From positions 465,833 to 529,832 of the forward strand of contig CP055308.1 in the NCBI GenBank assembly GCA_013374855.1: a DNA stretch of 64,000 nt, in the 5' to 3' direction. The notes under the pieces were generated by a model that made no database searches, was not told the origin of the DNA, and saw only the letters and a list, made by a program, of their open reading frames with translations. How positions within the stretch are numbered: the first letter of the stretch is position 1; each line of letters opens with the position of its first letter. The DNA comes from Candidatus Woesebacteria bacterium (GTDB lineage: Bacteria; Patescibacteriota; Microgenomatia; UBA8517). This document shows positions 6,700-59,492 of the stretch, piece by piece. Made by a program: the position numbers and the translations under genes.

Positions 6700-7127
6700 T
6701 TTTTAAAGATTATTCCAAATGCAATAATTATTAAAACCAAAGGCCAGAGTTTAAAGAGTTGTTCGATTCTAAAGATTCCGAAGTTTTCGAGAAGAAAGAG
6801 AACCCCAATCAAGGCAAGCATCAGACCAAGAACATACCTGCCTTCATCTTTTTTGGCATAGTATTTTCCTTTTTCAAGAAGACCTTTTGCTTCTTCTTTG
6901 ATTTCCTCTGCATTTTCCTGAACTGATACCTTTTTACTTTTTTCCGAAGGAATAATAAGCCATAGGATAAGGTATAGGAGAATACCCCCGCCGCCAAAAA
7001 GTGCAATTAACAAAAAAACTATTCTTATTACAGTAGGATCAATATTAAAATATTCTCCCAAGCCAGCACAAACACCACCAATTAGGCGATTTGTTTTTGA
7101 CCTGTAAAGAATTTTTTCTTTTGTCAC
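6696..7127 (-). CDS. PspC-domain membrane protein
   Basis: The LYRSKTNRLIGGVCAGLGEYFNIDPTVIRIVFLLIALFGGGGILLYLILWLIIP segment is a canonical PspC domain. The track ORF runs to 7250 but would overlap the divergent VKOR gene. A GTG at 7127 gives the N-terminus MTKEKILYRSK..., which matches the family and is preferred. Confidence 0.7.
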   Translation of the reverse strand: MTKEKILYRSKTNRLIGGVCAGLGEYFNIDPTVIRIVFLLIALFGGGGILLYLILWLIIPSEKSKKVSVQENAEEIKEEAKGLLEKGKYYAKKDEGRYVLGLMLALIGVLFLLENFGIFRIEQLFKLWPLVLIIIAFGIIFKK

Positions 7128-7188
7128 TATAGCTATTTTATTCTTTTCTTTTTTCTCTTGCAAGGAGTTTGTGTTTTGATAAAATGGT

Positions 7189-7623
7189 GTGATGTTGAAA
7201 GGTAAAAAAACTTGGTTTTTTGCAATAAGTATTTTTTCTTTGGTGGGCATTGCTCTTGCTGCTTATCTTCTTTACAGTTTCTATAATCCAAAACCCTCTT
7301 TGATTTGTGATATAAACGATAGGGTAAATTGCCAAGCAGCGGTTACGGGGTCTCTTGCCACTTTTGCCGGAATTCCTGTTTCTTTGGTTGGTCTTATTGG
7401 CTATGCTTTACTTTTGTTTGCAGGATTGACCTACCGCAGTAAACTTGCTTTTGCGGTAAGCGCTTTGGGGATGATTTTTTGCTTGCGGCTTACTATTTTG
7501 GAATTATTTTTTATTAAAGTTATCTGCCCAATTTGTATTGCCTGCCAAGTTATTATGCTTTTTATCTTTATTATTTCTTCTTTCTTGGTCTTTGGAAATA
7601 GATATAAAGTGTTGGAAAAGTGA
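7189..7623 (+). CDS. vitamin K epoxide reductase (VKOR) family protein
   Basis: Four to five TM helices with a loop Cys pair (LICDINDRVNC) and a CPIC (CxxC) active-site motif in a TM helix. Confidence 0.8.
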   Translation: MMLKGKKTWFFAISIFSLVGIALAAYLLYSFYNPKPSLICDINDRVNCQAAVTGSLATFAGIPVSLVGLIGYALLLFAGLTYRSKLAFAVSALGMIFCLRLTILELFFIKVICPICIACQVIMLFIFIISSFLVFGNRYKVLEK

Positions 7624-7722
7624 AGGGTGTGATGAAAGTAAAATTAGACGAAAAAAAGAGGGGGTTTTGAGATAATAATTAGAGATAGCATCTCTCTACC
7701 CCCTTGTTGATGTTTTTTAGTC

Positions 7723-8082
7723 CTAGCTTTGTGGCTCAACTAGTTTAAGGATTATACTAGCGATATACTCCCCCAAGTTAAAGATCAGGCTAAGTCCCCA
7801 AACAACCCAGAACCAATTTCCGATTGGTTCTGCTGAGGAGAGTTGATCAAATTGCAAACCGATGAAGGTTGCCGAAAAAGCAAAAAAATACAGATATAGT
7901 TCAAGAACTTCTGCTATCTTTTTTCTTCTTGATACCCCGCTAATCATCAAGAAGAGACTAATTGAGAAGGTTATTACCAGTATGATTTGAATACCTAACC
8001 GATTTCCTGCTTGGAAATATATTACTGCCATTATAATGGCCAATACTCCTTGGACTAGGTTGGCAACAGTTCTAATCATCAC
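7723..8082 (-). CDS. small integral membrane protein, hypothetical
   Basis: 119 aa with four hydrophobic helices and no recognisable motif. Confidence 0.45.
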   Translation of the reverse strand: MMIRTVANLVQGVLAIIMAVIYFQAGNRLGIQIILVITFSISLFLMISGVSRRKKIAEVLELYLYFFAFSATFIGLQFDQLSSAEPIGNWFWVVWGLSLIFNLGEYIASIILKLVEPQS

Positions 8083-8299
8083 ACACTCTCCTTTTGTTGG
8101 AAAAAATGTAAAAGAGCTTTAACTCTAATGAGATTATACTATATTGCTACCCTATAGTCAAGAATAAAAAAACTACTTTGATTGTTTGTGTTGTGTAAAA
8201 TTTGTTGGTTGAAATTAAAAATTTTCTGGTTGGTTTAGAAAAAATCTTTGCTTTAATTCACTTTTCTTTTAGTTTAAAATGGGTGTAAACTATTGTTTT

Positions 8300-11062: not shown

Positions 11063-11113
11063 AAAGGAATTTCAAAAGCTCCTTCAAGGGAGATTATTCT
11101 AAAAAAGCTGCTT

Positions 11114-11404
11114 TTAAATTTTAGTAATACCTGAGTTTTTCTCTATTTTCGTAGTTTTGGAAAAACGTTTTTCCAAAAAAGCAAGAAGTTTTCCTTTGTC
11201 CAGATCAAAGCGGTTTAGGTAGAAGACATAAAGGATCTCTAGAATACCTAATGTATTGAATATAAGCATTATTAAAAACCACAGAAGCTGCTTTTTTTGA
11301 CTTGATTTCCATAGTGCCAGTCCTTTCCAGATTATAGTCCAGAAAAAAAGAAAATAGATAAATAAAGGATTGTATAGTATTTGAGTGTAGTCAAAATTAT
11401 TCAC
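11114..11404 (-). CDS. small membrane protein (DUF5652-like), hypothetical
   Basis: 96 aa, two TM helices, W/F-rich. Confidence 0.4.
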   Translation of the reverse strand: MNNFDYTQILYNPLFIYFLFFWTIIWKGLALWKSSQKKQLLWFLIMLIFNTLGILEILYVFYLNRFDLDKGKLLAFLEKRFSKTTKIEKNSGITKI

Positions 11405-11483
11405 TGTTTTATTATTTAACAGTAAAGTTTTCTTGTCAAATCTGAAACTTTTTGACTCCTAATAGTTGATGTTTTACAATTTT

Positions 11484-11511
11484 TGTTTCGATGTATTAAT
11501 ACATCGAAACA
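11484..11511. repeat. perfect 28-bp palindrome TGTTTCGATGTATTAATACATCGAAACA (copy 1, CGATG subtype)
   Basis: Read directly from the sequence; exact reverse-complement symmetry. Lies in the divergent gap between 11404(-) and tgt, 56 bp upstream of the tgt ATG, and is preceded by TTTTT. Confidence 0.9.
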
Positions 11512-11560
11512 TTAGAATGGCATTATGGAGAATGCTTGAATTTGTTAGAATTAGAATTAG

Positions 11561-22663: not shown

Positions 22664-22695
22664 TTTGTATCAATGTATTAATACATTGATACAAA
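22664..22695. repeat. perfect 32-bp palindrome TTTGTATCAATGTATTAATACATTGATACAAA (copy 2, CAATG subtype)
   Basis: Exact dyad; 67 bp upstream of the 22762 HTH gene; preceded by a T-tract. Confidence 0.9.
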
Positions 22696-22761
22696 TAGAA
22701 TGTCTGGAAGGTTTGTTTAACTTTGTGGTATAAATAAAATAGGTTTTGATGACTTTTTAAA

Positions 22762-23208
22762 ATGGCGCAGGTCTCTAAAGTTCCTGTAAGAAAAGAAGTA
22801 TACCTTAGGGTATTTGAAGTTTTTGTGAGTACTATTTCGCGTCTTAAAGATAAAAAAGATATTGTTGTTTTTTTAAATGAATTTTTTACTCCAACAGAAA
22901 AGATTATGTTTGTCAAAAGATTTGCTATACCTATTCTTTATGAGAAAGGCTATACCTATCGTGATATTTCAAGTGTTTTGAAAGTTAGCACAGCCACTGT
23001 TAGTCGGGTTATTATTTTTTACAACTTGAGTGACGAATTTAGAGAATTAATTAAAAAATTTTTGGAGGAGGAGAAAACAAAGAAATTTTTACTTGATCTG
23101 GGTGATATTATTGCATCTGCTGCAGGAGTGAGTGGAGCTAAAGCCTCCTCCTGGTTTGCTTTGAAGAAGGAAATTAAAAAGAAAAAGGCAAGAAATAATG
23201 TTTTTTGA
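22762..23208 (+). CDS. TrpR-like / YerC-YecD family helix-turn-helix DNA-binding protein
   Basis: The N-terminal half matches the YerC/YecD (TrpR-related) pattern FLNEFFTPTEKIMFVKRFAI...LYEKGYTYRDISSVLKVSTATVSRV, with the HTH at YRDISSVLKVSTATVSRV. The C-terminal 50 aa are K/E-rich. Confidence 0.6.
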   Translation: MAQVSKVPVRKEVYLRVFEVFVSTISRLKDKKDIVVFLNEFFTPTEKIMFVKRFAIPILYEKGYTYRDISSVLKVSTATVSRVIIFYNLSDEFRELIKKFLEEEKTKKFLLDLGDIIASAAGVSGAKASSWFALKKEIKKKKARNNVF

Positions 23209-23248: not shown

Positions 23249-23278
23249 TTGTATCAATGTATTAATACATTGATACAA
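23249..23278. repeat. perfect 30-bp palindrome TTGTATCAATGTATTAATACATTGATACAA (copy 3, CAATG subtype)
   Basis: Exact dyad; 40 bp downstream of the HTH gene stop and 22 bp upstream of the 23301 ORF; preceded by TTTTTTT. Confidence 0.9.
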
Positions 23279-25793: not shown

Positions 25794-28700
25794 ATGAATA
25801 AAAAAATAGTCTTTAAGCTGTTTTCTTTAGTTTCTGCCTTTTCTATTCTTTTTAACTTGTTTTATACGCCTCTTTATGTTTTAGCTCAAGAAACAGGCTC
25901 TCAAACTGATCAATCAACACCCGCACCAACATTGGCAGTAGAGACTAATCCAACACCGGAAGTTACTTTTACTCCAGAACCAAATCAAACACCAGAGGCA
26001 ACCTCAACACCAGAGTCAACTCCAACACCAGAAGAAGTTTCAACTCCCACTGCAACACCAACATCAGAACCTACAATAGAACCTACTCCTACTTTGCTTC
26101 CAGGCCCGGAGGTTGTTTTAGGAGAGAAAACAGAAAGTTCTTCTTCTCCAACAAATTTACCAACTAGCTTTGATACAAGTGATAGTGACAAAGTTTTTGA
26201 ATCTTCCGCACAGCTTTTCTTAACTGACGCTTCTGTTGAGAAAGAGTGTCTTGCAGATCAAAATGTAATTGATAGTCAGGATGTTGATTGGTATATTTCG
26301 ACTGATAGTGGGTATGCACAAACGAAATCTAATGTTCAGATTGGAGTAAGATATGTTTTTCCATTGGAGAATAAGGTAACCTTAACTTTTAAATGTCTTC
26401 CTAAAGATGAGTCTTTAAGAAGTTCTTTAAAGATCCAAAAGGTTAAGGTCTCAGATTTGAATCTTCCTGAAGGGTTAAATCCTTACGGCGAATGGGCTTA
26501 TGATATTACCACTGGTATGAAAGATGGTACTTTTGAGTATGATATCACCCTTCCTAAACCAGAAAATCAAGAAGCGAAAGTTTTCTATATGGAAGATGTT
26601 AGTGGGGAAGTTAAGAATGTTGAAGATGAAAAGATAAATCAGGAAGGAGATAAGATTAGAGTTGAAAGTTTGGATCATTTTTCTGTTTTTTATTTAGTAA
26701 CAGTTTCTCCGGGTGGGGTAAATAGTTTAGAGAAGTTTGATAGTCTTAGTGATTGGATCACATCTAATTCTTCTGTTGCTTCTGGTTCAGGTGATGATTC
26801 ACCTTTAGATGGCAATTTTGCCAAGATTGACGCTGGAGGATATATTTGTCGTGATGTGGATGCTCTTGGTTTTCAAAATCTTTTGCTTCAGTTTTACTGG
26901 AAAGGAGATAAAGATGCAGGGTCACATGATAATGGCTATGTTTATGTTAAAAAAGGTGGCAATTGTTCAGACGATGATGGTTGGACTAAGGTTTATAAAG
27001 CAGACTTAGATACCAACAGAGATAAAAATGGTTATCCTCAATGGAGTTCTCAAATTTCTATTAATTTAAATTCCAGTTTTTCTAATTCCAATTTTAAAAT
27101 TAAATTTAAAAATTCCTCAAACGACGCATCAGATGAGTTTTTTAGAGTTGACAACTTTAAGATTACAGGAACGAAAATAAACTGGCCAGATGATTGGACT
27201 GTTCCAAGTTGCTATCTGGATCCAACCGGGGAATCGGGTGTAGGCAATACAAGAGTTGATTTGGATGGGACTTCTACAAGCAAGCCTGCGGCTTCTTATA
27301 AGTGGACAAATGACTATTTATACTTGCGTTTCAGAGTAGATGGTAATCCTGGTACTGCGTCAAATCCAGATAATTTTGCTTGGTCAGTTTTGGTCCAAAA
27401 TACACCTCCTAAATATCAATATTTGATTACTCTTGACGGACTGAACAATCAGCTAAAGATTTTAGAAAACAATCAGTCAACTGCTTCTAATGTTACCTGG
27501 AATCCAATTTTAAATGATCCTGCAGAGACTTTGCTTTGGTCAGGTCCAAGCTCAATGTATGCCAATATTGTTCATGACAGCTCGACAGTTGACGATCATT
27601 ATATTATTTTAGCTGTGCCTATAAGTGCTTTGCCTAGTTCGGTAACTAGCTCCTCAATTTTTTATTTTGCTACAGCTGCCGATATCAATAATTTTAATAA
27701 AGATCACCTGAATTGTTATGAACAGCCACAAACGGGTTTGATTAGGGTTGAGAAGAGCGTTAAGGAAGGAAACACTTGGACTAACCAAGCTGAAAGTATC
27801 AGTCTTTTTAAATGGCGGGTTGATGATGAGACACAGTGGCGAGATATGGGGACTAGTGTTGAACTTTCAGCTGGTTCTCATTCTATAACAGAAAATAGTG
27901 TTATTGGTTATCAATTTGATGGTTGGTATTATGCTGGCAGTGGAAATGGTTCCTGTATTAGCCCAGAGGGGACCATCTTACCTATTAATTTGAATATTGT
28001 TGCTGGTCAACAAAAAGAGATTGTTTTATGTAACTCCCGTTTGCCTTATTGTGGAGATGGAATTAAAAATGGGGAAGAACAGTGTGATGGAACTGATGGA
28101 GTGACCCCAGGGCAAAACTTCTGCACTAAAAGTTGTACTTTAGTTCCAATTTATGATGGAGAAGATAGTTGTCCTGCAGGGACTGTTAAAAGCCAGACTC
28201 CGATTTTATCTAAAGTAATTTCGGCAACCGATCCTGACGGAGAAACATTTAATTTGGATATCGGAGGAAAATATATTTTTGAGGTAAGTGGTACTTATAG
28301 TTATGATAAAAATAATAGTGGTAAGTTAGCTGATGCGGCTTATGGAACAAAAGATAATTGGTCCTCTACAAGAACCGATATTGGTATTTGGGGAACAAAT
28401 AGAGGGGTAACTTCTTTATTGGCTGATTTAGGGAGTGGTGTGGGAGTAGTTGAATGGGATAATAATCAAATGTTTAATCCTGATCATACCTACCAGAAAT
28501 ATTATTCTCCAACCAAAAATTCAGTCCAATTTTTAATCAGTGATTGGTATGATAACTGGTTTAATTCTTCTTACAACAATCAATCTGCTATGTCAGATAA
28601 TTCCGGAAGTTTGACTTTAAATGTTTATAAATGCGAGCCAGTATCTGAGGTCAAAATTTGCAAGTATGACAACAACCAACAGCCACTTTCTGGTTGGCGG

Positions 28701-31700
28701 GTTTATTTATTGGGAGAAAAATTAAACAGTTTTTCTATTCCTTCAGACGGAAGTGTTGTCAACGCGGGTAATTATTCTTCCGGTAGTTATGCTCTGATTG
28801 CCTCGGGTGTTTATAACTATGGAGATCCTCGGATGAATGCTGATGCGGCTAATTCATATCGTTATGTTGGTCTTCCTTGCGCCGGTTCAACTGATGGTTG
28901 GGTTAACGGCGAAGCCTCAAGTTGTATGAGCAACTATTTGTCTTTAAATTTATCAACAAGTGGCGGGCCAACTGCTCCGGGTTGGGGACTGTACTACAAT
29001 CCTGAGCATATATATGCAAAAGCATTTACGGGTGGAAATTTGCAGGCAAAAATTTGGGATACTTGTAGTTTAAGTCAGCCAGAAGGCTGTTATGGTGATA
29101 ACGAAGGAAAATTGAAACTTGATGTTTATAAAGGTTATGTTGGCGATACTGGGAATGACGGATGTGTCACCTTTAATAATGTCCCTTATGGCAGTTATCA
29201 ATTGGACGAAGTGTTAAAAGAAGGATGGAGAAAAGAGTCTGGCCAAGGAGAAGTTGTGGTAGATGGTTCTTCAGAAGTTTTCAGTTTAATTAACGCTTTA
29301 AATTATGGTTCAATTTCAGGAAAGAAATATGATGGTTCGGAGGAAGGAACGGTACTTTCCGGTTGGTCAATAGTTTTGACAGGTAACTCTCATGTTTCTT
29401 CTTTAAATGTTCCTGCTAATGGGGAAGTTGTTAATTCTGCTCCTTTAGAATCAGGCAAGAAATATTTAGTAAAAGTTTCTGGCGCAGCTCAAGCGGGTGA
29501 CAATATTCACTTTGACGCTGAGTGTGCCAGTGATGGCGGAGTGACGCCTTGGATTAATGGTGTTCCACGATATTTATCCTATGGCGAAAATCTCTTAGAC
29601 CTAAAAATTAATGACAATTTTGTTGATTGGGGCAGTTGTGAGCCGGTAAATCATACTTATTATTATTTGCTTAATGGTAATGGCAGTCCGGTATCTTTTA
29701 AGGTTTATGATATTTATTACCCAAATAACACTGGAAGTTTAACGGTTGAAATTTATGAAGTGGTGAAAGAGGATGTTACTGACAGTACTGGTTATGGTTG
29801 GAATGATGTTTTAGCTGGAGATTATCAACTTTGCGAGATTATTCAGACAGGTTGGAATCAAACTAAACCGGGAACATTTGGTGCTCCAACTTGTTATTCT
29901 GTAAAAGTTACCCCTGGTTCTAATCAAACTTTTGATTTTGTTAATTTTAAGCTTGGAACTATTCAGGGTAGAAAGTATGAAGATTTAAATGGTAATGGTT
30001 CAGAAAACAGTGGTGAACCATATCTTAATGGATGGACAATTAGGCTTTATAAAGAGGGTGAGGGTTGGGATTTAGTTGATTCAAAGACCACAGGACACAC
30101 TGGCGTGTTGGGCGAGTATAAATTTGAGAATCTTGAACCTGGCAGGTATAGGGTTTGTGAAGTTCTTAAAGATGGTTGGGTTCAAACTTCGCCAACTGGA
30201 GTAACTAACAACATTGCTTCTGATGAGGCACCAAGCTGTCGGGTTGTTAATATTAATACTTCAGCTCAGATTTTAACTGATGAGAACTTTGGCAACTTTA
30301 AGCTAGGTAGAATTTATGGCTATAAGTATGATGAAGATGGGGAAACTGGGATTGGAGGTTGGAAGATATTTATAGATAATGATGGGGATAAAAGCTTTGA
30401 CGAAGGTGAAGTGTCGGTTCAGACTGGAAATGATGGCTATTTTGAATTTACAGGATTGACTTCTGGTACTTACAATGTGTGCGAGGTTGAACAAAGTGGT
30501 TGGCAGAGGATGTATCCTGTGGGAACTAACTGTCAGTCTATTGACATAAAATCAGGATCAGAAAAAGAAATTTATTTCCAAAACAGAAAGGTTGTTTTGG
30601 GATTGACTCTTACCAAGTTAAACGACGCTGTTTTGGGTTTGTCAGCAGGAGGGCAGATTAATTATAAGTTAGTAATTAAAAACACGGGTAATCAATCCTT
30701 GAGTGGTGTTACTATTAAAGACGCCCCAGCTGGTGGTTTTACATTTGTCGCAGGAAGTGGTTTTTTGGGTAGTGACCCAATAACGCCAACATTTAGCGGT
30801 GGTTATATTGAATGGTATATTGGCGTCTTAGCTGCAGGGGAAGAGAAAACTTTAACCTACAAGATGCAGACAGGTTCTGATCTTGTTAATGGAGTTTATC
30901 CAAATATTGCAATAGCGACAGGTATTTATACTCCTTCTGAATATGTTCCAGAGGAAGTTGTGGGGATATTTAGTCCAATTGTGGTTGAGGCTTTGGCAGT
31001 AGACGATAATGCAGAAGAAGGACAAAGAATAGAAAGTAATGAAGGAACACCTGTTAATTCTGAGGTAAGGATTGCCTCTAGCCTCTCTTATTCAACCGGA
31101 GTTGGCTCAACAGGGCAAGTTCTGGGTGCTTCAACTGAAGTGGGAGGCCAAGTATTGCCTGCTGCTGGTTCTTCTACTTGGAATCTTGCGCTTGCGCTTT
31201 TGTCTTTGATATTTGGTTTTGGGTTAAAAGCGTTAGGTATTGCAGTTGAAAGAGGGAAAATCGACACAAGAAGAGTTAGAAGGGGTCTTAAAAAAGCAAG
31301 CTTATTCTTGTCATCTTTGGCTTTGTTTTTGGTTTTGGCTTCTACAACTAAGGCTTTTTCTGATTATGTTTATATAACAAAACTTGATTCTTATCTAAAT
31401 AAAGAAAACTTTTACCTTTCCTACTCAGCTTTGTCTGAAAATCCGATTTCGGCGCAATTTTATGTAAGAAGAGATGGAGATGCTACATGGAGAACTGTGG
31501 GTAGCTTGCTAAATGGCGCTTCAGGACAGGTTGAAGTAAAGTCTGGTGATATTTACGGCGGTGATGGAAAATACTTCTTTAAGGTAGTTATAAATAGTGG
31601 AACAGCATCAGACGAAACCTCAACAACAATAGACAGAAGCAGCCCAGATCCAGTTCGGGATTATAGAAAAGAGAAGATTTCAGATGGGCATTATAAGCTT

Positions 31701-32225
31701 CATTGGAGAAATCCTGATAATATTGATTTTGATAAAGTAAAGATTTATCGTTCAGAAAACACTAATTTTACTGCTGATTCTTCAACTGAAGTTGGCACTG
31801 TTTGGGGGACAGCTGGGTCTGAGATGACTTGGGAGAATGCTGCAGCGCCTGGGAAAGAATACTATTTTGCTATAAGAGCAATAGACAAAGCAGGCAATGC
31901 TTCTTCTGTTGTTGCAGATCCAGAAACGCAAGTGGTAGCTGGTGCTGTCTTGGGTGAATCAACTAAAGCTCCAGAAACAGAAGAGGTAAAGATTTTGCCA
32001 AAAGAAAAGAAAGGCGAAGTTTTAGGAGAAGAAAAAGATGCTAGCAAAGGGGAAGCTACCACAGAAAGCACCCCTTCTCCAGAGAGTGAAAAAGAAGAGA
32101 CTGGTGGAGTTTTGGGACAGGCTGTTAAATTTGCCAAGGAGAAAACAAAACTGACTCTTGTTATTGCTCTTCTTTTGGGTCTTGCTTCTTACTTTGCCTC
32201 AAAGTTTTTAAGGAGAAGAGGTTAA
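25794..32225 (+). CDS. giant (2143 aa) cell-surface protein with Cna-B/SdrD-B-like and DUF11-like repeats, FN3-like domain, Pro/Thr/Glu-rich linker, internal LPAAG sorting-signal-like segment and C-terminal TM anchor
   Basis: Signal peptide, then a PT-rich low-complexity tract (aa 40-110, nt about 25910-26120). At least five repeats carry the G.Y.(V/L)CE....GW motif (GRYRVCEVLKDGW, GTYNVCEVEQSGW, GDYQLCEIIQTGW, GSYQLDEVLKEGW). A DUF11-like block spans nt about 30594-30930. LPAAG at 31155-31169 is followed by a hydrophobic stretch, RRVRRGLKK, and a second signal-like segment. An FN3-like block follows (YKLHWRNPDN...YYFAIRAIDKAGN), then the final hydrophobic segment plus RRRG. Confidence 0.8.
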   Translation: MNKKIVFKLFSLVSAFSILFNLFYTPLYVLAQETGSQTDQSTPAPTLAVETNPTPEVTFTPEPNQTPEATSTPESTPTPEEVSTPTATPTSEPTIEPTPTLLPGPEVVLGEKTESSSSPTNLPTSFDTSDSDKVFESSAQLFLTDASVEKECLADQNVIDSQDVDWYISTDSGYAQTKSNVQIGVRYVFPLENKVTLTFKCLPKDESLRSSLKIQKVKVSDLNLPEGLNPYGEWAYDITTGMKDGTFEYDITLPKPENQEAKVFYMEDVSGEVKNVEDEKINQEGDKIRVESLDHFSVFYLVTVSPGGVNSLEKFDSLSDWITSNSSVASGSGDDSPLDGNFAKIDAGGYICRDVDALGFQNLLLQFYWKGDKDAGSHDNGYVYVKKGGNCSDDDGWTKVYKADLDTNRDKNGYPQWSSQISINLNSSFSNSNFKIKFKNSSNDASDEFFRVDNFKITGTKINWPDDWTVPSCYLDPTGESGVGNTRVDLDGTSTSKPAASYKWTNDYLYLRFRVDGNPGTASNPDNFAWSVLVQNTPPKYQYLITLDGLNNQLKILENNQSTASNVTWNPILNDPAETLLWSGPSSMYANIVHDSSTVDDHYIILAVPISALPSSVTSSSIFYFATAADINNFNKDHLNCYEQPQTGLIRVEKSVKEGNTWTNQAESISLFKWRVDDETQWRDMGTSVELSAGSHSITENSVIGYQFDGWYYAGSGNGSCISPEGTILPINLNIVAGQQKEIVLCNSRLPYCGDGIKNGEEQCDGTDGVTPGQNFCTKSCTLVPIYDGEDSCPAGTVKSQTPILSKVISATDPDGETFNLDIGGKYIFEVSGTYSYDKNNSGKLADAAYGTKDNWSSTRTDIGIWGTNRGVTSLLADLGSGVGVVEWDNNQMFNPDHTYQKYYSPTKNSVQFLISDWYDNWFNSSYNNQSAMSDNSGSLTLNVYKCEPVSEVKICKYDNNQQPLSGWRVYLLGEKLNSFSIPSDGSVVNAGNYSSGSYALIASGVYNYGDPRMNADAANSYRYVGLPCAGSTDGWVNGEASSCMSNYLSLNLSTSGGPTAPGWGLYYNPEHIYAKAFTGGNLQAKIWDTCSLSQPEGCYGDNEGKLKLDVYKGYVGDTGNDGCVTFNNVPYGSYQLDEVLKEGWRKESGQGEVVVDGSSEVFSLINALNYGSISGKKYDGSEEGTVLSGWSIVLTGNSHVSSLNVPANGEVVNSAPLESGKKYLVKVSGAAQAGDNIHFDAECASDGGVTPWINGVPRYLSYGENLLDLKINDNFVDWGSCEPVNHTYYYLLNGNGSPVSFKVYDIYYPNNTGSLTVEIYEVVKEDVTDSTGYGWNDVLAGDYQLCEIIQTGWNQTKPGTFGAPTCYSVKVTPGSNQTFDFVNFKLGTIQGRKYEDLNGNGSENSGEPYLNGWTIRLYKEGEGWDLVDSKTTGHTGVLGEYKFENLEPGRYRVCEVLKDGWVQTSPTGVTNNIASDEAPSCRVVNINTSAQILTDENFGNFKLGRIYGYKYDEDGETGIGGWKIFIDNDGDKSFDEGEVSVQTGNDGYFEFTGLTSGTYNVCEVEQSGWQRMYPVGTNCQSIDIKSGSEKEIYFQNRKVVLGLTLTKLNDAVLGLSAGGQINYKLVIKNTGNQSLSGVTIKDAPAGGFTFVAGSGFLGSDPITPTFSGGYIEWYIGVLAAGEEKTLTYKMQTGSDLVNGVYPNIAIATGIYTPSEYVPEEVVGIFSPIVVEALAVDDNAEEGQRIESNEGTPVNSEVRIASSLSYSTGVGSTGQVLGASTEVGGQVLPAAGSSTWNLALALLSLIFGFGLKALGIAVERGKIDTRRVRRGLKKASLFLSSLALFLVLASTTKAFSDYVYITKLDSYLNKENFYLSYSALSENPISAQFYVRRDGDATWRTVGSLLNGASGQVEVKSGDIYGGDGKYFFKVVINSGTASDETSTTIDRSSPDPVRDYRKEKISDGHYKLHWRNPDNIDFDKVKIYRSENTNFTADSSTEVGTVWGTAGSEMTWENAAAPGKEYYFAIRAIDKAGNASSVVADPETQVVAGAVLGESTKAPETEEVKILPKEKKGEVLGEEKDASKGEATTESTPSPESEKEETGGVLGQAVKFAKEKTKLTLVIALLLGLASYFASKFLRRRG

Positions 32226-53188: not shown

Positions 53189-53220
53189 TTTGTTTCGATG
53201 TATTAATACATCGAAACAAA
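53189..53220. repeat. perfect 32-bp palindrome TTTGTTTCGATGTATTAATACATCGAAACAAA (copy 4, CGATG subtype)
   Basis: Exact dyad; in the gap between 53135 and the operon starting at 53233/53326. Confidence 0.9.
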
Positions 53221-53325
53221 GTTAGCTAATAATTGCGGGTTTTTAAAAATTTTTCTAGTGCGATCCTTCAGTTGTTTTTCAGGATTTGGTTTTATATTTG
53301 TTTTAACAAGAAGGGAGGTGAGAGT

Positions 53326-53718
53326 ATGAAAAATTTGATTGTTGTTTTGCTTGTCGTGCTGGGAGTTTTGTTTGTCTTATCTATTGGTTTTTTGATGGGG
53401 AAAAAATTTAATTTAATGAGTTACCGTTTTAATAATTCTCCTGCTTATGGGTTTGGAGGTAGATTTGGAATATACAAAAGAGGTTTTGAAAGACCTATGA
53501 GGATTGCTAGAGGGGGATATGCAGAAGTAGTAAAGAGGAATGGTAATAAGTTAACTCTCAGATTTTCCAACGGCTTTGAAAAAGAGGTAGAATTATCACA
53601 AGATACTACCGTTTATGTGCAAACTAGGGGTAGTTTAGATGATCTAACTGAAGGAAGCAAAATTTTAGTGAAAGGTATTGAAGGATTAGACCAGGTGATT
53701 GTAGTTGAAAAACAATGA
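53326..53718 (+). CDS. small membrane-anchored beta-rich protein (paralog of 58614..59030)
   Basis: Strong RBS GGGAGGTGAGAGT before the ATG at 53326 (track ORF 53233 extended upstream). One TM helix, then NGNKLTLRFSNGFEKEVELSQDTTVYV...LTEGSKILVKG...VIVVE, which aligns by eye with KSITVKLPDGSSKIVFLTDSTVISK...LKAGEKISAFG...TVVASNIQ of the 58614 protein. Confidence 0.55.
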   Translation: MKNLIVVLLVVLGVLFVLSIGFLMGKKFNLMSYRFNNSPAYGFGGRFGIYKRGFERPMRIARGGYAEVVKRNGNKLTLRFSNGFEKEVELSQDTTVYVQTRGSLDDLTEGSKILVKGIEGLDQVIVVEKQ

Positions 53719-54380
53719 AAGTCTTGATTGTAGAGGATGAGCACAGAATTGCCTCTTCTATTAAGAAGGGGCTGGAGATGGAGAATTTTGTGGTAGATGT
53801 GGCCTATGACGGTGTAGAAGGTTTGGATTTAGCATCAACTGGAGATTATGATTGTGTACTTCTTGATTTGATGCTGCCTGGAATGAATGGTTTGGAAGTA
53901 TGTCGCCGCTTGCGAGAAGAAAGAATTCATACACCTGTTCTTATGTTAACTGCCAAAGGGGAGTTGGATGATAAGATAAAAGGTTTTGATGTGGGAGCTG
54001 ATGACTATCTGACTAAACCTTTTTCTTTTGAAGAATTGCTGGCAAGAGTTCGTGCGTTGACTCGACGATCGCAAACAGTATTTCATCCAGTTTTGGAAGT
54101 CGATGACTTAAGATTGGATAGCCGTTCTTTTGAGGTAATCAGACAAGGTGTGAAGATTTTGTTATCCAGAAAGGAGTATGCAGTACTTGAGTATCTTATG
54201 CGAAACAGAGGGAGAGTAGTTAGTAAAGACGAGATTATCAGTCATGTGTGGGAGTATGATGCTGACATCTTACCCAATACGGTAGAAGTTTTTATTAAAA
54301 ATCTGCGTCGTAAGATAGATAGACCCTTTGAGAGAAATCTGATTAAGACTGTAAGAGGTTTTGGTTATAAGATTGATTGA
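53715..54380 (+). CDS. OmpR-family response regulator
   Basis: Receiver domain (VLIVEDE, phospho-Asp in LLDLMLPGMNG, KP loop) and winged-helix output (VRGFGYKI). Confidence 0.9.
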   Translation: MKVLIVEDEHRIASSIKKGLEMENFVVDVAYDGVEGLDLASTGDYDCVLLDLMLPGMNGLEVCRRLREERIHTPVLMLTAKGELDDKIKGFDVGADDYLTKPFSFEELLARVRALTRRSQTVFHPVLEVDDLRLDSRSFEVIRQGVKILLSRKEYAVLEYLMRNRGRVVSKDEIISHVWEYDADILPNTVEVFIKNLRRKIDRPFERNLIKTVRGFGYKID

Positions 54381-54383
54381 TAT

Positions 54384-55406
54384 ATGTTTAATGAAGCTCG
54401 TCTGAAACTTACCCTTTGGTATCTTTTAATTCTGATGCTTATCAGTTTTGGTTTTAGTGTGGTTATTTACAAAGTCTTGGATTCAGAGTTGAATAGATTT
54501 TCGTTTGCTCAACGGATGCGTTTGGAAAACCGTTTCAGAGAGTTTCGTAATCCTAATTTTGAATATTCACCTCGTTTATTTATGACCCCCGATTTGGTAG
54601 ATGAAACAAGGAAGAGAATAGTTCTTTTTTTGTTTTTGATAAATGGAGGGATCTTGGTTGCAGGTGGTACTCTTTCATATTTTCTTGCTGGTAAGACTTT
54701 GAAGCCGATCGAAGAAATGGTGAGTCAGCAAAAACAGTTTATTTCTGATGCTTCTCATGAATTTAAGACCCCACTTGCTTCTCTTAAGACATCTTTAGAA
54801 GTGGCTTTGAGAGACAAGAATTTAGATTTGGCTGAATCTAAAAGAGTGTTAAAAGATAATCTTGTTGAGGTGGAGAGGTTGCAAAAGTTAACAGAAAATC
54901 TTCTTGTTCTTTCTCGTTACGAGGCTGAAGGGAAAGGAAAAAGGAACTTATCAAGAGTAAATTTTTCTTTGATTTTTGATGAGGCCTTAAGGCGAGTAAA
55001 GCCGTTGCTGAAGGCAAAGGGGATAAGACTAAAAAAAGATATTAGGGATGTTGAGTTTTTGGTGGACGCTGAAAGTATGGTGGAACTTTTGGTTGTTCTG
55101 CTGGATAATGCGATAAAGTATAGCTACAAAAAGGGAATAGTGGAAGTTGTTTCTTATGCTAAGAGAAATTTTTTGTTTTTTGAAGTTAAAGATTATGGAA
55201 TTGGTATTAAGCCCGAAGATCAAAAACATATTTTCGATCGCTTTTACAGAGCTGACAGTTCTCGTCAGAGCAATGAACGGCAAGGTTTTGGAATTGGTCT
55301 TTCTCTAGCAAAAAGAATAGTTGAAAAGCACAAAGGAGAGATATTTGTGAAAAGCAAGTTTGGGAAAGGAAGTGTTTTTGTGGTAAAAATACCACTCTCC
55401 TCTTAG
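54384..55406 (+). CDS. sensor histidine kinase (two TM helices with a loop of about 55 aa)
   Basis: H-box SDASHEFKTPL, N box (LDNAIKYS), G1 (VKDYGIGI), G2 (GFGIGLSLAKRIVEKHKGEI). Confidence 0.9.
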   Translation: MFNEARLKLTLWYLLILMLISFGFSVVIYKVLDSELNRFSFAQRMRLENRFREFRNPNFEYSPRLFMTPDLVDETRKRIVLFLFLINGGILVAGGTLSYFLAGKTLKPIEEMVSQQKQFISDASHEFKTPLASLKTSLEVALRDKNLDLAESKRVLKDNLVEVERLQKLTENLLVLSRYEAEGKGKRNLSRVNFSLIFDEALRRVKPLLKAKGIRLKKDIRDVEFLVDAESMVELLVVLLDNAIKYSYKKGIVEVVSYAKRNFLFFEVKDYGIGIKPEDQKHIFDRFYRADSSRQSNERQGFGIGLSLAKRIVEKHKGEIFVKSKFGKGSVFVVKIPLSS

Positions 55407-55456
55407 ATTTTCAGGTTTTTTTCAGCAAATTTATTTAATCTTATAATTAAGGTAAG

Positions 55457-56674
55457 ATGAACGTCTTAGTTAAATTAAAGAAGCTACTAAGAACAAGATC
55501 TTTATTAGTTGCAGTCTTGTTTTTGGTGGTGGTTGGTGTGTTTTGGTTTATAAGGTATAAGAGTTCTAAAAACGGTAAGGTTGTTTATCAAACAGCGAGG
55601 GTAGAAAGAGGAACAGTGGTGTCTTCTATTTCTGCGTCAGGTAGTATTATTTCTTCTAACTTTATTTCGATTGATACAACAGCCAGTGGCGTGGTAAAAG
55701 AAGTTTTTGTTAAGGAAGGTCAGAAAGTTTATAAAGGTCAAAGAATTGCTAGGATTGAGCTTGATATGGAGGGAGAGCAAAGGCTAGCCTCTGCTTATTC
55801 TAGCTTAATTTCGGCAGATAATGCTTTAGCCTCAGCTAATAATAGCCTACGTCAAGCTCAGGCTTCTTTGGAGAAAGTTTATGATGAAATAAAAGGACAC
55901 GACAGTGATGAAACTTTTGCAATGAAGGAGACAAGAACTAAAGCAGAAGTAGCAAAAGATAATGCCTACAACAGTTTAAGAAGCGCCCAAGCTAGTTTGT
56001 CGGTTGCTTCCTATAATTATCGTCTTGCCTCACCTGATATTTTAGCTCCTGTCTCGGGTGTCGTGGGGAGTATAAATATTGTTCCTGGGATGGTTTTGGG
56101 AAGTGTTTCAAGTCAGTCGGGTTCTTCATCAACCAGAGTTGGAGTTATAAAGTTTGAAGGTCTGCCTGTGGCTTCTTTTAACGTATCTGAAGTTGATATC
56201 TCGAAGGTTAAAGAAGGACAAAAGGCGACAATTACGATAGATTCTATATTTGGCAAGACTTTTACAGGAAAGGTCGTGGCAGTAGACAGAGTTGGTATAA
56301 GCTCAAGTGGCGTTACCAACTATCCAGTTTTAGTTCAATTTGATAATAGTGTTCCTGAAATTCTGCCTAATATGTCAGCTTCGGTTAATATAATTTTAGA
56401 CACTAAAGCTGATGTTCTTGTAATTCCTAATTCAGCTCTAGTTACAGCAGGTGATGGAAGCACGAGTGTTAGAGTGCTGAAAAATGGTAAAGAAGAGACC
56501 TTGTCTGTGGTAGTAGGTATTTCTTCTGATACGAATACAGAAATAGTTTCTGGATTAAGCGAGGGTGATACAGTTGTTACTGGAACAGTTTCTTCTAGTT
56601 CTACGCAAGGTGGTGCTAACAGGTCTGTTTCTCCATTTAGTTCTTTTGGTGGTGGGGGATTTAGGATGAGGTAA
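55457..56674 (+). CDS. HlyD/MacA-family periplasmic adaptor subunit (module 2)
   Basis: TM anchor, coiled-coil hairpin and beta-barrel. Paralogous to 40425..41453 (shared TRT.AEVAKDNAY.SLR ... AP.SG.V block). Confidence 0.85.
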   Translation: MNVLVKLKKLLRTRSLLVAVLFLVVVGVFWFIRYKSSKNGKVVYQTARVERGTVVSSISASGSIISSNFISIDTTASGVVKEVFVKEGQKVYKGQRIARIELDMEGEQRLASAYSSLISADNALASANNSLRQAQASLEKVYDEIKGHDSDETFAMKETRTKAEVAKDNAYNSLRSAQASLSVASYNYRLASPDILAPVSGVVGSINIVPGMVLGSVSSQSGSSSTRVGVIKFEGLPVASFNVSEVDISKVKEGQKATITIDSIFGKTFTGKVVAVDRVGISSSGVTNYPVLVQFDNSVPEILPNMSASVNIILDTKADVLVIPNSALVTAGDGSTSVRVLKNGKEETLSVVVGISSDTNTEIVSGLSEGDTVVTGTVSSSSTQGGANRSVSPFSSFGGGGFRMR

Positions 56675-56675
56675 T

Positions 56676-57383
56676 ATGCCTACTATTATTGAAGTTTCGA
56701 ATGTCAGGAAAGTTTACAAGAATGATTCTGTGGAAACAATCGCTTTAGAGGGGATTTCTTTTAAGGTGCAAAAAGGAGAATTTGTAGCTATTATGGGACC
56801 TTCTGGTTCTGGTAAATCTACTCTTATGCATATTTTAGGGCTGCTTGACAAACCAACCAGTGGTAAATATTTTCTTGAGGAGGAGGATGTGTCTTTGTTG
56901 AATGAAGATAGATTGGCGGAGTTAAGAAATAGGAAGATAGGTTTTGTTTTTCAGGCTTACAACCTTCTTCCTCGTATATCGGCTTTAAAAAATGTGGCGC
57001 TACCAATGATTTATGGTGGGCTTGAAGAAGAGGAAGGGTTGATAAAAGCAAAACGTTTGTTAGAAATGGTTGGTATGGGGGATAGATTACTTTATACTCC
57101 TAGTCAGCTTTCGGGTGGCCAACAGCAAAGAGTAGCTATCGCTCGCAGTCTAACAATGAATCCTTCTCTAATTCTTGCTGATGAACCAACTGGAAATATT
57201 GCCACAAGTCAGGCAGAGGAAATTATGAAAATTTTTGTTGATCTAAACAAAAAAGGGCACACAATAGTAATTATTACCCATGAAGAAGATATTGCCTCAT
57301 ATGCTCAGCGGATTATTTATCTAAGAGACGGAAAAATAGTAAAAGAGTCCAAGAGTAAGAGGATTGTTAAGAAACTTGTCTAA
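56676..57383 (+). CDS. ABC transporter ATP-binding protein, MacB/LolD-type (module 2)
   Basis: Walker [10 protein letters not shown], signature [15 protein letters not shown], Walker [11 protein letters not shown]. Confidence 0.9.
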
Positions 57384-58608
57384 TATGGATTACAAAGAAA
57401 TTATATCTGAGGCAATATCTTCTTTACTTTTAAATAAAACAAGAACAGGGCTTGCTGCCCTTGGGGTAATTATTGGGATAGGGAGCGTGATAGCTCTAAT
57501 ATCATTGGGGCAGGCAAGCCAAAAAGCTGTGGAGAATCAAATTCAGTCTTTGGGTTCTAATCTACTCACGATTAGCCCAAGAGGTGCAAGTGTGGGTGGA
57601 GTACAAAGAGCGGGAGGGACAGGAACTACTTTAACTTTGGATGACGCGCTTGCGATATTAAAACAGTTTAGAGGTAGTTTAGTGAATGATGTTTCTCCTG
57701 AATTTTCCGGTCGTCGGCAAGTAACTGCTGGTCGCAAAAATATTAACACTCAAGTAATAGGAGTCTACCCCCAATATGCTCAAATTAGGAAAATTCAGAT
57801 AGACAAAGGTTATTTTATTAGCACCAGAGATGTTGAAGGAATGACTAGGGTGGCAGTAGTTGGCCCTCAGGTGGCAATTGATTTATTTGGAGAGGGGACA
57901 AATCCCGTGGGTAAGAGCATAAGAATAGAAGGGATTGCTTTTAAAATAATAGGACAGACTCTTGCTAAGGGGGGACAAGGTTTTGGTAATCCAGATGATT
58001 CTATTTATATTCCTTTATCAACAGCTCAGAAACAAATTTTTGGTGCTAATTATTTAACCAGTATTGCGGTTGAGGTAAAAGATGATAACATTATGACCGA
58101 TGCTCAAAATCAAATAGGCTATTTTCTTCTAGAGAGACATCGTCTTACAAGTCCTGAAAATGCAGATTTTAGTATATTTTCTCAAGCGGATGTTTTATCC
58201 ACAGCTTCTTCGGTAACTTCTACATTTACCACTTTATTGGCAGGTATTGCGGCGATTTCACTTTTGGTGGGGGGTATAGGAATTATGAATATAATGCTTG
58301 TGACAGTTACTGAGAGAACTCGCGAAATTGGACTACGCAAGGCTTTGGGTGCAAAAAACAAGCTTATCATAATTCAGTTCTTGCTTGAGGCGGTTATTTT
58401 GACTTTGAGTGGTGGAGTTTTGGGAATAGTACTTGGAATAACTGTTTCTTTTTTCCTTTCGCACAGTATGGGTTTGCCTTTTACTGTTTCTTTGTTGTCT
58501 ATTTTGCTTTCTTTTGGTGTTTCGGTGTTGGTGGGTATAATCTTTGGGATATATCCTGCTCGTAAGGCTTCTAAGCTTGAGCCTATTGAGGCTTTGAGAT
58601 ATGAATAA
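57364..58608 (+). CDS. ABC transporter permease, MacB/FtsX-domain family (module 2)
   Basis: Same architecture as 38566..39753 (VTERTREIGLRKALGA motif). Confidence 0.85.
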   Translation: MLRNLSNMDYKEIISEAISSLLLNKTRTGLAALGVIIGIGSVIALISLGQASQKAVENQIQSLGSNLLTISPRGASVGGVQRAGGTGTTLTLDDALAILKQFRGSLVNDVSPEFSGRRQVTAGRKNINTQVIGVYPQYAQIRKIQIDKGYFISTRDVEGMTRVAVVGPQVAIDLFGEGTNPVGKSIRIEGIAFKIIGQTLAKGGQGFGNPDDSIYIPLSTAQKQIFGANYLTSIAVEVKDDNIMTDAQNQIGYFLLERHRLTSPENADFSIFSQADVLSTASSVTSTFTTLLAGIAAISLLVGGIGIMNIMLVTVTERTREIGLRKALGAKNKLIIIQFLLEAVILTLSGGVLGIVLGITVSFFLSHSMGLPFTVSLLSILLSFGVSVLVGIIFGIYPARKASKLEPIEALRYE

Positions 58609-58613
58609 AGGAG

Positions 58614-59030
58614 GTGATTAATATGAAAAATAAGTTTTTGTTAGTAGTGATGGCTTTTTCTTTGGTGTTTGGGGTTTTGGGTTTTTGGGGAGGAATAAAG
58701 TATCAACAATCCAAAAACCCACGTTTTCCGGTGCGGAATTTTGCTGGGAATGGTAATTTTCCTGGTCAGAACCAGAATAATTTTCGGCCGGTTAGTGGGG
58801 AAATAATATCAGTTGATGACAAGAGCATTACGGTTAAATTACCTGATGGCTCAAGTAAGATAGTTTTCTTAACTGATTCAACAGTAATTAGCAAATCGGA
58901 TTCTGCCACTAAAGAAGATCTTAAGGCTGGAGAAAAAATCTCTGCTTTTGGAACAGTAAATCAAGACGGTACGGTTGTTGCATCTAATATTCAACTTAAT
59001 TCTGTTTTTCGAACCGGACCACAGCGATAG
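58614..59030 (+). CDS. small membrane-anchored beta-rich secreted protein (paralog of 53326..53718)
   Basis: Signal/TM segment, N/Q/G-rich linker, then the KSITVKLPDGSSKIVFLTDSTVISK...GTVVASNIQL domain. Confidence 0.55.
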   Translation: MINMKNKFLLVVMAFSLVFGVLGFWGGIKYQQSKNPRFPVRNFAGNGNFPGQNQNNFRPVSGEIISVDDKSITVKLPDGSSKIVFLTDSTVISKSDSATKEDLKAGEKISAFGTVNQDGTVVASNIQLNSVFRTGPQR

Positions 59031-59051
59031 ATAATATCGTATGATTACTTT

Positions 59052-59081
59052 TTGTTTCGATGTATTAATACATCGAAACAA
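59052..59081. repeat. perfect 30-bp palindrome TTGTTTCGATGTATTAATACATCGAAACAA (copy 5, CGATG subtype)
   Basis: Exact dyad; 22 bp downstream of the 59030 stop and preceded by a T-tract. Confidence 0.9.
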
Positions 59082-59492
59082 TGGCAAGGTTTATAATGTT
59101 TGTAATTGGGTTTGATGATAATTTAGAAAAAGGATTGAAGAGTTCTAAGACTTCTTTTTTGAAGAAAATGACTTCGGAGAAGGCAATTGAAATGGGTGAG
59201 TAGAGCTGTCTTATCCTTCGACTTTTCCCAGGTGGCATTGGTTGACGAAATGTTTTCAATTTCAATATATAATAAGGGGTATTAAAAACAAGCTTGGTTG
59301 TCTGAGAATTCAGTTGGACAGAGATTAATAATGTTTTGAATTTTAGTTCGAAGACCCATCTTACAGAAGCACTAAGAAATATTTGGATTTAGCTTAAAAG
59401 ATTTGATGAAGATGAACAATGACTTTATTTGGATTATGTTGAATGATGATCTCTTGTTTACTTTAACCATTCTCTTGTTATAACATTAAAGT

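Follow-up and report, generated by a model that had tools for sequence, protein, structure and literature searches.

A probable MacAB/YknXYZ-type pump operon with its own two-component system in Candidatus Woesebacteria, flanked by dispersed palindromes that a TrpR-like protein may bind

Why should an operon for an apparent export pump begin and end with genes for related small membrane proteins, and lie between two copies of the same perfect palindrome? The operon in question comprises seven co-directional open reading frames (ORFs) on the + strand, between positions 53326 and 59030 of a 64-kb stretch of Candidatus Woesebacteria contig CP055308.1 (64,000 nucleotides, hereafter the window). 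A sequence-only reading of this DNA had taken the genes, the paired 'bookend' proteins (here g1 and g7) and the paired palindromes, or dyads, as one designed layout. Our analysis leads us to a different account, which we hold to be fairly probable: the operon encodes an inducible pump of the MacAB/YknXYZ type under its own OmpR-type two-component system, and the dyads are dispersed sites, most likely for a TrpR-like protein encoded elsewhere in the window. The window has ~36% G+C, carries nearly all of its genes on the + strand and holds families typical of the Candidate Phyla Radiation (CPR), DUF5652 among them. Its proteins have homologues in metagenome-assembled genomes (MAGs) of Woesebacteria and Microgenomates and on one 802-kb contig.

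An operon for a two-component system and a MacAB-like pump

The seven genes, in order, are as follows.

53326..53718, + strand: g1, 130 aa, probably a divergent DUF5666-type protein, in which a disordered linker joins an N-terminal transmembrane (TM) helix to a beta barrel
53715..54380, + strand: response regulator of the OmpR/PhoB family, with a receiver domain and a winged helix
54384..55406, + strand: histidine kinase with two TM segments, HisKA and HATPase_c
55457..56674, + strand: membrane-fusion adaptor of the HlyD/MacA/YknX type, with an N-terminal TM anchor
56676..57383, + strand: ATP-binding cassette (ABC) ATPase of the MacB nucleotide-binding-domain type (ABC_tran, 1.8e-32)
57385..58608, + strand: MacB-type permease with four TM segments, a large extracytoplasmic MacB_PCD domain and an FtsX domain
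58623..59030, + strand: g7, 135 aa, DUF5666 family; a TM helix at 2-31 is followed by a disordered linker and, at 57-125, by a barrel of five strands that resembles an oligonucleotide/oligosaccharide-binding (OB) fold

Strong Pfam and NCBIfam matches identified the five large proteins as regulator, kinase, adaptor, ATPase and permease. The regulator matched Response_reg (9.7e-34) and Trans_reg_C (9.2e-27), and its top NCBIfam model was the heavy-metal CopR/CztR/SilR (CopR/CusR) subfamily, at 255 bits and thus below the cut-off of 279. In the kinase (HisKA, 2.1e-14; HATPase_c, 2.2e-24), hydropathy places an extracytoplasmic loop of ~45 aa between hydrophobic spans 6-34 and 77-101, and the Pfam and NCBIfam profile searches returned no match to a HAMP domain. 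Because the outer loop is short and a HAMP match is lacking, sensing by this kinase probably depends on a partner. The adaptor matched HlyD_D23, HlyD_3, RND_mfp (122 bits against a cut-off of 94.9) and the YknX beta-barrel and C-terminal models. For the permease, we took the ATG at 57385 as the start, so that its length of 407 aa matches its relatives; this protein has four hydrophobic spans and matched MacB_PCD (2.7e-42), FtsX (4.8e-23) and PRK10535 MacB (1.6e-74).

Hydropathy also predicts a single N-terminal TM helix each in g1, g7 and the adaptor. A ribosome-binding site, GGGAGGTGAG, stands ahead of the g1 ATG, and g7 is 135 aa long if started at the ATG at 58623, which has AGGAGGTGA just ahead of it. 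The window ORF list contains no gene for a TolC-type outer-membrane duct in or adjoining the operon; CPR bacteria are generally regarded as having no outer membrane. The profile searches and hydropathy therefore agree with the gene content proposed from sequence alone as far as it concerns a two-component system, a MacA/MacB-like exporter and two paralogous small anchored proteins. The spacing proposed there, overlaps or gaps of 4 bp or less throughout, does not fit: the gaps are, in order, -4, 3, 50, 1, 1 and 14 bp, with the kinase-adaptor (50 bp) and permease-g7 (14 bp) junctions exceeding that limit.

The last gene is conserved and the first is a lineage-specific copy

Several comparisons indicate that g1 and g7 are true distant paralogues, as had been proposed. 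BLASTP aligned the two proteins at 24% identity (E=3e-6). A profile built from 120 g7 homologues scored g1 at 27 bits (E=1e-10, single comparison) and the L005 orthologue of g1 at 41 bits (L-numbers, L001-L116, denote the relative loci that we fetched). The shared motif quoted in the sequence-only reading is present except for its leading K, which is N in g1. When the small proteins were searched by profile for membership of a DUF family, g7 matched Pfam DUF5666 (PF18914) at 32.3 bits, above the cut-off of 27, and g1 had no Pfam DUF5666 match. Homologues of g7 number at least 943, nearly all of 130-150 aa and most carrying PF18914. With g1 as query, an exhaustive phmmer search of 1.84 billion representatives found only two close relatives, followed by small TM-plus-beta proteins and multi-repeat DUF5666 proteins, and a search of a 5.8-billion-protein index found only the cluster of g1 itself.

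The predicted structures share one layout. AlphaFold2 modelled g7 (predicted local distance difference test, pLDDT, 78) as a five-strand barrel joined to a TM helix by a disordered linker, and g1 on the same plan at lower confidence (pLDDT 68). Foldseek searches with the g7 model returned generic OB folds only (the LysRS N-domain, the PAN OB domain, IF1, S1 and the SilB C-terminal domain), and a search on the function of DUF5666 found nothing relevant in the library of papers that it covered.

We read the synteny of the operon in nine independent lineages: the window group (the window and L002-L004), L005, L006 and L111-L116. A DUF5666 gene directly follows the MacB permease gene in seven of the nine (window group, L005, L006, L112, L113, L114 and L116); it is one gene further from the permease in L115 and detached in L111. 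The g7 family thus closes the pump unit in 8 of 9 lineages, counting L115 with its one intervening gene. The regulator-kinase pair lies upstream of the pump in 7 of 9. By this survey, the conserved module consists of regulator, kinase, adaptor, ATPase, permease and DUF5666 protein. Conversely, g1 is confined to the window group and L005 and, judged by its sequence and distribution, is a rare, divergent, lineage-specific extra copy of g7. The 'bookend' symmetry is therefore a lineage-specific addition, and of the proposed pair only g7 belongs to a conserved layout.

Predicted regulator boxes suggest two promoters

Alignment of the DNA upstream of g1 in the window, L002 and L005 revealed one conserved island, CCTTCAGTTnTTTTTCAG. 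It contains a direct repeat, TTTCAG-N5-TTTCAG (equally TTCAG-N6-TTCAG), with an 11-bp period. For activators of the OmpR/PhoB family, the standard geometry is a tandem repeat of 11-bp period in place of the -35 element. The same box occurs a second time, between the kinase and adaptor genes, and each copy is followed by candidate -10 hexamers.

53267..53282, + strand: P1 regulator box, TTCAG-N6-TTCAG, exact, in place of a -35 element
53293..53298, + strand: P1 -10 candidate TATATT, 10 nt after the box, with the same geometry in relatives
55410..55425, + strand: P2 regulator box, TTCAG-N6-TTCAG, exact, inside the 50-bp kinase-adaptor gap
55436..55447, + strand: P2 -10 candidates, TAATCT 10 nt after the box and then directly TATAAT

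These are the only two exact matches in the 64-kb window (0.35 expected). Both are on the + strand, and they precede g1 and the adaptor gene, respectively. Allowing one mismatch gave 9 matches against 8.5 expected and was uninformative. By phylogenetic footprinting, both positions carry the box in L001-L007 and in 0 of 103 other loci compared. In more distant lineages, the P1 box was also found in L112, L114 and L116, with a TCTCAG variant in L115; the P2 box is exact in L005, L006 and L114 and has variants, including AAGCTTTTTCTCAG, in L112, L113, L115 and L116. L113 has a P2-type box even though no two-component system adjoins its pump genes. Wherever the box occurs, 8-10 nt lie between the end of its second repeat and a -10-like hexamer (TATATT, TAATCT/TATAAT, TATAAT, TAATAT, TAGACT or TATACT).

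A consensus scan for promoters and terminators performed at chance level and was useful only for a TTTTCA-17-TATAAT element flagged in the kinase-adaptor gap. The scan found no terminator-like site in that gap, so read-through from P1 is likely. Together, these features point to two regulator-dependent promoters, P1 for g1, regulator and kinase, and P2 for adaptor, ATPase, permease and g7. The idea of a single, tightly packed transcription unit is thus not supported: the genes are co-directional and probably joined by read-through, but a second conserved promoter-type element stands before the adaptor gene. The analogy drawn earlier to sense-and-export modules gains support, as a conserved regulator box precedes both the sensor genes and the pump genes.

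The palindromes form a dispersed family linked to a TrpR-like gene

The dyads at the two ends of the operon belong to a family with five copies in the window, two of which bracket a gene for a TrpR/YerC-like helix-turn-helix (HTH) protein.

53189..53220, unstranded: upstream dyad of the operon, CGATG subtype, perfect palindrome, 54 bp after the stop codon of the preceding gene
59052..59081, unstranded: downstream dyad of the operon, perfect, identical to 53190-53219, 21 bp after the g7 stop codon
11483..11512, unstranded: third CGATG-subtype copy (29/30), between a divergent DUF5652 gene (- strand) and tgt (+ strand)
22664..22695, unstranded: CAATG-subtype copy, 67 bp upstream of the TrpR-like gene
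22762..23208, + strand: TrpR/YerC-like HTH gene, 148 aa with a C-terminal extension of ~60 aa, bracketed by the two CAATG-subtype palindromes
23249..23278, unstranded: CAATG-subtype copy, 41 bp after the stop codon of the TrpR-like gene and just upstream of a gene for a PEGA-domain membrane protein

The 30-mer TTGTTTCGATGTATTAATACATCGAAACAA occurs exactly at 53190-53219 and 59052-59081 and had zero matches in shuffled sequences; a symmetric variant, TTGTATCAATGTATTAATACATTGATACAA, occurs at 22664 and 23249. The two subtypes differ by mirrored changes. Identity between copies ends at 30-32 bp, with no larger shared body, and a looser palindrome search of the window for graded weak sites returned none beyond chance. 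Rfam, run over the whole window, matched two tRNAs only and gave no match at the dyads or in the spacer that follows the downstream dyad.

Among relatives, palindromes were sought within 400 bp of each end of the operon. None was found at either end in L006 or in L112-L116, and the L005 operon has an upstream palindrome only, with no downstream copy. The 28-bp palindrome upstream of g1 in L005, a 71%-identical relative, is ACTATCAATACATCGATGTATTGATAGT, in which the inner half-site is flipped compared with that of the window type. The intergenic DNA of L005 (1-330 and 6022-6369) is also rich in CATAATTCAT and TTAATTCAT repeats, which resemble half-sites of the ATGAATTAATTCAT core described below.

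To survey the TrpR-like gene, we fetched 80 metagenome loci with homologues, of which 69 were distinct, and counted a palindrome if it reached 16 bp, had no more than one mismatched pair and stood no more than 120 bp upstream of the start or 110 bp after the stop. A palindrome lay upstream in 62 of 68 loci, downstream in 48 of 66 and on both sides in 46 of 65, against a background of 0.08 per 125 bp. The 62 loci with an upstream palindrome have no such pump operon nearby. Upstream and downstream cores agree in 38 of 47 loci, and the cores are lineage-specific: ATGATTTAAATCAT is the commonest, ATGATTCGAATCAT, ATGAATTAATTCAT and ATGATATATATCAT are others, and the window type is ATGTATTAATACAT. 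At many loci, a clear TTGACA-17-TATAAT promoter runs into the upstream copy or stands immediately before it, and 1-25 bp separate the end of this copy from the ATG; downstream copies are often placed likewise, just ahead of the ATG of the next gene. In many loci the symmetry extends for 15-17 bp per side. It runs through the exact centre of the palindromes, leaving no loop, which favours a symmetric oligomer that recognises duplex DNA over selection for an RNA hairpin. Comparison of recognition helices with core types showed some correspondence, which is confounded by phylogeny and lends weak support.

A wider scan with the 20-bp core, in one genome per species, gave 23 loci in MAGs of Woesebacteria, Microgenomatus, Roizmanbacteria, Saccharibacteria and Parcubacteria, with some labelled otherwise. 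A TrpR-like homologue adjoins the palindrome in L008, L010, L019 and L026, the last with copies on both sides; the TrpR-like gene of L019 is bracketed too, even though the gene that follows its downstream copy is convergent. Genes neighbouring the palindromes include tgt, DUF5652, the PEGA-domain protein, the pump operon, a family 2 glycosyltransferase (GT2), YqeY, an M23 peptidase, alanine racemase and others, with no trp or his genes among them. On one 173-kb contig, Ga0082335_1000175, two TrpR-like paralogues (L057 and L077) lie 46 kb apart, one with flanking palindromes and one without.

The TrpR-like protein scored 46.1 bits against Pfam Trp_repressor (PF01371; cut-off 27) and fell below the equivalog cut-offs of both TIGR02531 (YerC/YecD, 31.5 against 42.2) and TIGR01321 (TrpR, 20.7 against 67.25). 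Proteins of the TrpR family, including HisR (YerC), bind lineage-specific 20-bp palindromes and often autoregulate (PMC9413887). The palindromes described here are most likely binding sites of the TrpR-like protein, to judge by their association with its gene. Their absence from the operon ends of six other lineages, their presence elsewhere in the window and their link to the TrpR-like gene together indicate that the dyads are members of a dispersed site family and not operon parts. The dyads that were seen to bracket the operon are thus real, but the bracket is not special to it.

A broader proposal, which we offer as possible but doubtful, is a CPR-wide system in which an extended TrpR-fold protein is encoded between co-evolving palindromes of 28-34 bp, with identical palindrome copies dispersed between transcription units. 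In these genomes, which have few regulators, the protein might mark boundaries, act as a roadblock or serve as a global repressor, or the palindromes might be a family akin to repetitive extragenic palindromic (REP) elements with an HTH partner; the operon would then be one delimited unit among others. Within the library of papers covered, searches on promoter palindromes in CPR bacteria and on TrpR in CPR bacteria found nothing relevant, and we found no published description of the palindrome/TrpR-like pairing.

Surroundings of the palindromes

The centre of the upstream dyad lies ~88 bp before the P1 -10 box. The downstream dyad ends 10 nt before a TATAAT at 59092-59097, a placing conserved in L002 as TGGTATAAT. 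At the copies spanning 11483-11518 and 22665-22701, a -10-like TAGAAT follows the palindrome by 0-1 nt, and the other copies have a -10-like hexamer 6-10 nt on; the dyad centre at the window copies would thus sit at ~-28 to -38 of a putative promoter.

Between the downstream dyad and a GT2/GtrA gene lies a 412-bp non-coding spacer (59082-59492), the first ~250 bp of which are conserved with L002. It contains a weak hairpin with a T6 run at ~59133-59156 and may encode a small transcript or a long leader.

Three relatives (L001, L003 and L004) are Logan contigs of 5884-5888 bp whose two ends both fall inside the two palindromes, one of them seen in 17 samples. Several independent short-read assemblies thus break at the palindromes, exactly at the operon borders.

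A model of the operon and points that weigh against it

We propose that the conserved module is an export or detoxification device of a monoderm-like CPR bacterium of the Microgenomates type, controlled by its own OmpR-family two-component system. The phosphorylated regulator would bind the TTTCAG repeats in place of a -35 element, in the manner of PhoB. From P1 it would activate g1 and the genes for itself and its kinase, giving positive autoregulation, and from P2 the adaptor, ATPase, permease and g7. Sensing would probably need partners, namely the pump, the membrane-anchored OB-fold proteins or both. The DUF5666 protein g7 would be a conserved fourth component of the pump unit, and g1 a recent, fast-diverging duplicate beside the sensor genes that might serve as a co-sensor or modulator. 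By analogy, our best guess for the substrate is an antimicrobial peptide or another membrane-active compound. The upstream palindrome may impose another tier of control or serve as an end marker for the preceding unit, and the downstream palindrome appears to adjoin the promoter of the following unit.

Several observations weigh against parts of this account. All of the regulatory sites are predictions made in silico. The count of exact boxes is weak on its own, as 7 of 100 shuffles gave at least two matches; we therefore place the weight on the exact form of the box and its positional conservation. Boxes of the CopR/CusR group are inverted repeats, which fits poorly with direct repeats given the best NCBIfam match of this regulator. 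As for the palindromes, the window copies are all-or-none, five in number without weaker graded sites, which is atypical of a transcription-factor regulon, and their symmetry to ~15 bp per side is atypical of ordinary transcription-factor sites. At about -100, the upstream copy at the operon stands too remote from P1 to block it. A stop codon precedes four of the five window copies by 21-98 bp, as it would for terminator hairpins. Finally, the TM helices of g1 and g7 have positive charges at both flanks, so the barrel could face out or in.

Alternative explanations

Two other accounts of the palindromes retain non-trivial weight because of the all-or-none copies, the mirrored subtypes, the deep symmetry, the bracketing on both sides and the placing after stop codons. 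In the first, the palindromes are transcribed RNA hairpins, either factor-independent terminators or 3'-end stabilisers, and the operon lies between its own terminator and that of the unit upstream. The post-stop placing of four of the five copies, all relative to + strand genes, speaks for this, as do predicted hairpins that are stable, at -17 to -18 kcal/mol (-18.4 for the upstream dyad; z -2.8 to -4.7) and the silence of the consensus scan, which shows no terminator-like site in the stretch after g7. However, the copies do not look like intrinsic terminators: the stems are AT-rich, no U-tract or T-run follows and the terminator scan is silent at the palindromes. The copy at 11483 lies between divergent gene starts, the upstream copy at TrpR-like loci sits between or over a -35/-10 promoter and the ATG, and symmetry through the centre spares no loop. 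Relatives with the same operon have no such hairpin, and the weak hairpin with its T6 run lies further downstream of g7. We consider this explanation unlikely.

In the second account, the palindromes are a self-propagating or recombinogenic repeat, either REP-like or paired recombination sites, with the small HTH gene as its partner, and the 5.9-kb operon could potentially be inverted or excised. The copies are indeed identical over 29-32 bp and fall into two symmetric subtypes with no degenerate sites; the partner gene is bracketed on both sides in 46 of 65 loci; the convergent gene in L019 makes its downstream copy no obvious operator; and assemblies break exactly at the copies. Yet the partner is a TrpR-family HTH protein with no nuclease or transposase domain, the repeat spans only 30-32 bp with no larger shared body, the L005 operon stands in the same genomic neighbourhood without a downstream copy and, as we see it, contig breaks would be expected in short-read assemblies at any repeat of such length. 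We give this account little credence.

A mobile cassette was also considered and rejected: the genes downstream of the operon are unchanged in L005 although the downstream dyad is missing there, and nothing beyond 30-32 bp is shared between copies of the repeat.

That the seven genes form a single transcription unit, with paired bookends and paired dyads as one designed layout, now seems improbable. The genes are co-directional, the kinase-adaptor gap shows no terminator-like site, read-through from P1 is likely and the layout is kept in the near relatives L002-L004; against this stand a conserved regulator box with its -10 box inside the operon, ahead of the adaptor gene, the absence of g1 from 6 of 9 lineages, and dyads that six lineages lack and that recur three times elsewhere in the window. 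Finally, it is very hard to credit the palindrome as a binding site for autoregulation by the operon's own CopR/CusR-like regulator from the upstream dyad: despite the regulator's best match to CopR/CztR/SilR (255 bits, cut-off 279), the inverted-repeat boxes of CusR-type regulators and the one dyad upstream of the operon, the six lineages without the palindrome all retain the TTTCAG direct repeats at both promoters, the palindrome goes with the TrpR-like gene in 62 of 68 loci that lack the operon nearby, and ~88 bp separate the dyad centre from the P1 -10 box.

Comparison with known systems

The pump that we propose most resembles YknXYZ of Bacillus and Spr0693-0695 of S. pneumoniae, which are MacAB-like pumps of Gram-positive bacteria (PMC5985334). 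Shared features are an ATPase that is a protein of its own, a MacB-type permease with four TM segments and a large outer domain, an anchored MacA/YknX-type adaptor and the absence of a duct gene from the operon. Unlike YknXYZ, the operon ends in a gene for a DUF5666 OB-fold protein and adjoins a two-component system. The B. subtilis YknXYZ system has YknW.

In its wiring to an adjacent two-component system, the operon also resembles HssRS-HrtAB and, among Firmicutes, BceRS-BceAB, in which a two-component system stands beside a type VII ABC transporter of the FtsX/MacB fold and a regulator box precedes the transporter genes. As in Bce systems, the kinase has a minimal sensing region, here with no HAMP match, and possibly needs the transporter to sense (PMC5985334). 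The permease, however, has 4 TM segments here against 10 in Bce, and an adaptor and DUF5666 accessories are present. The kinase loop of ~45 aa also exceeds the <25 aa of Bce kinases. On permease topology, presence of an adaptor and kinase loop length, the operon thus falls outside the definition of a Bce system.

Both predicted promoters follow the pattern of class II activation by PhoB/OmpR, in which a pho box replaces the -35 element, with 11-bp direct repeats 8-10 nt before the -10 hexamer; unlike in PhoB/OmpR systems, the predicted repeat unit, TTTCAG, is specific to this CPR system. The TrpR-like protein shares with TrpR and HisR (YerC) the Trp_repressor domain and lineage-specific palindromes, commonly at its own promoter, and the outer TGTA...TACA ends of the palindromes resemble the TrpR motif TGTAcTnGTnnACnAgTACA. 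It differs in its length (148 aa, with the ~60-aa C-terminal extension), in palindromes of 28-34 bp rather than 20 bp that flank the gene on both sides, in window copies that are identical rather than degenerate and in neighbouring genes other than trp and his. Like REP elements and their associated tyrosine transposases (RAYTs), the palindromes are short, dispersed and intergenic and bracket a small dedicated gene; unlike those, the bracketed gene encodes an HTH protein rather than an HUH/Y1 transposase, and we saw no evidence of mobility and no repeat body beyond the palindrome.

Implications and minor observations

The operon itself adds little that is new, being a MacAB/YknXYZ-like pump apparently under two-component control. 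Newer are its predicted regulator box and the DUF5666 protein as a probable fourth component, with a duplicate beside the sensor genes, which gives this domain of unknown function a concrete and testable context. The more useful result concerns the palindromes, although the pairing lies mostly outside the operon coordinates: a candidate DNA-binding protein and its likely site could be matched from sequence alone, co-varying across dozens of lineages. To our knowledge, almost nothing is known of transcriptional control in CPR bacteria (Patescibacteria). The palindrome family would also explain why short-read assemblies break at such sites.

Two further palindromes are unrelated in sequence to the dyad family. 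One, a perfect 24-bp palindrome at 11155-11178 (TTTTGGAAAAACGTTTTTCCAAAA), falls within the 3' portion of the DUF5652 ORF and downstream of secA; the other, a perfect 38-bp palindrome (CACCTTGAAGGTGTAGCTATATCTACACCTTCAAGGTG), is at 11104-11141 of L113. The window also contains a single + strand ORF of 2143 aa at 25794-32225. Directly after the operon homologue in L116, on the opposite strand, positions 6939-11352 encode a 1323-aa protein with a reverse-transcriptase domain together with a bAvd gene, a combination that looks like a diversity-generating retroelement.

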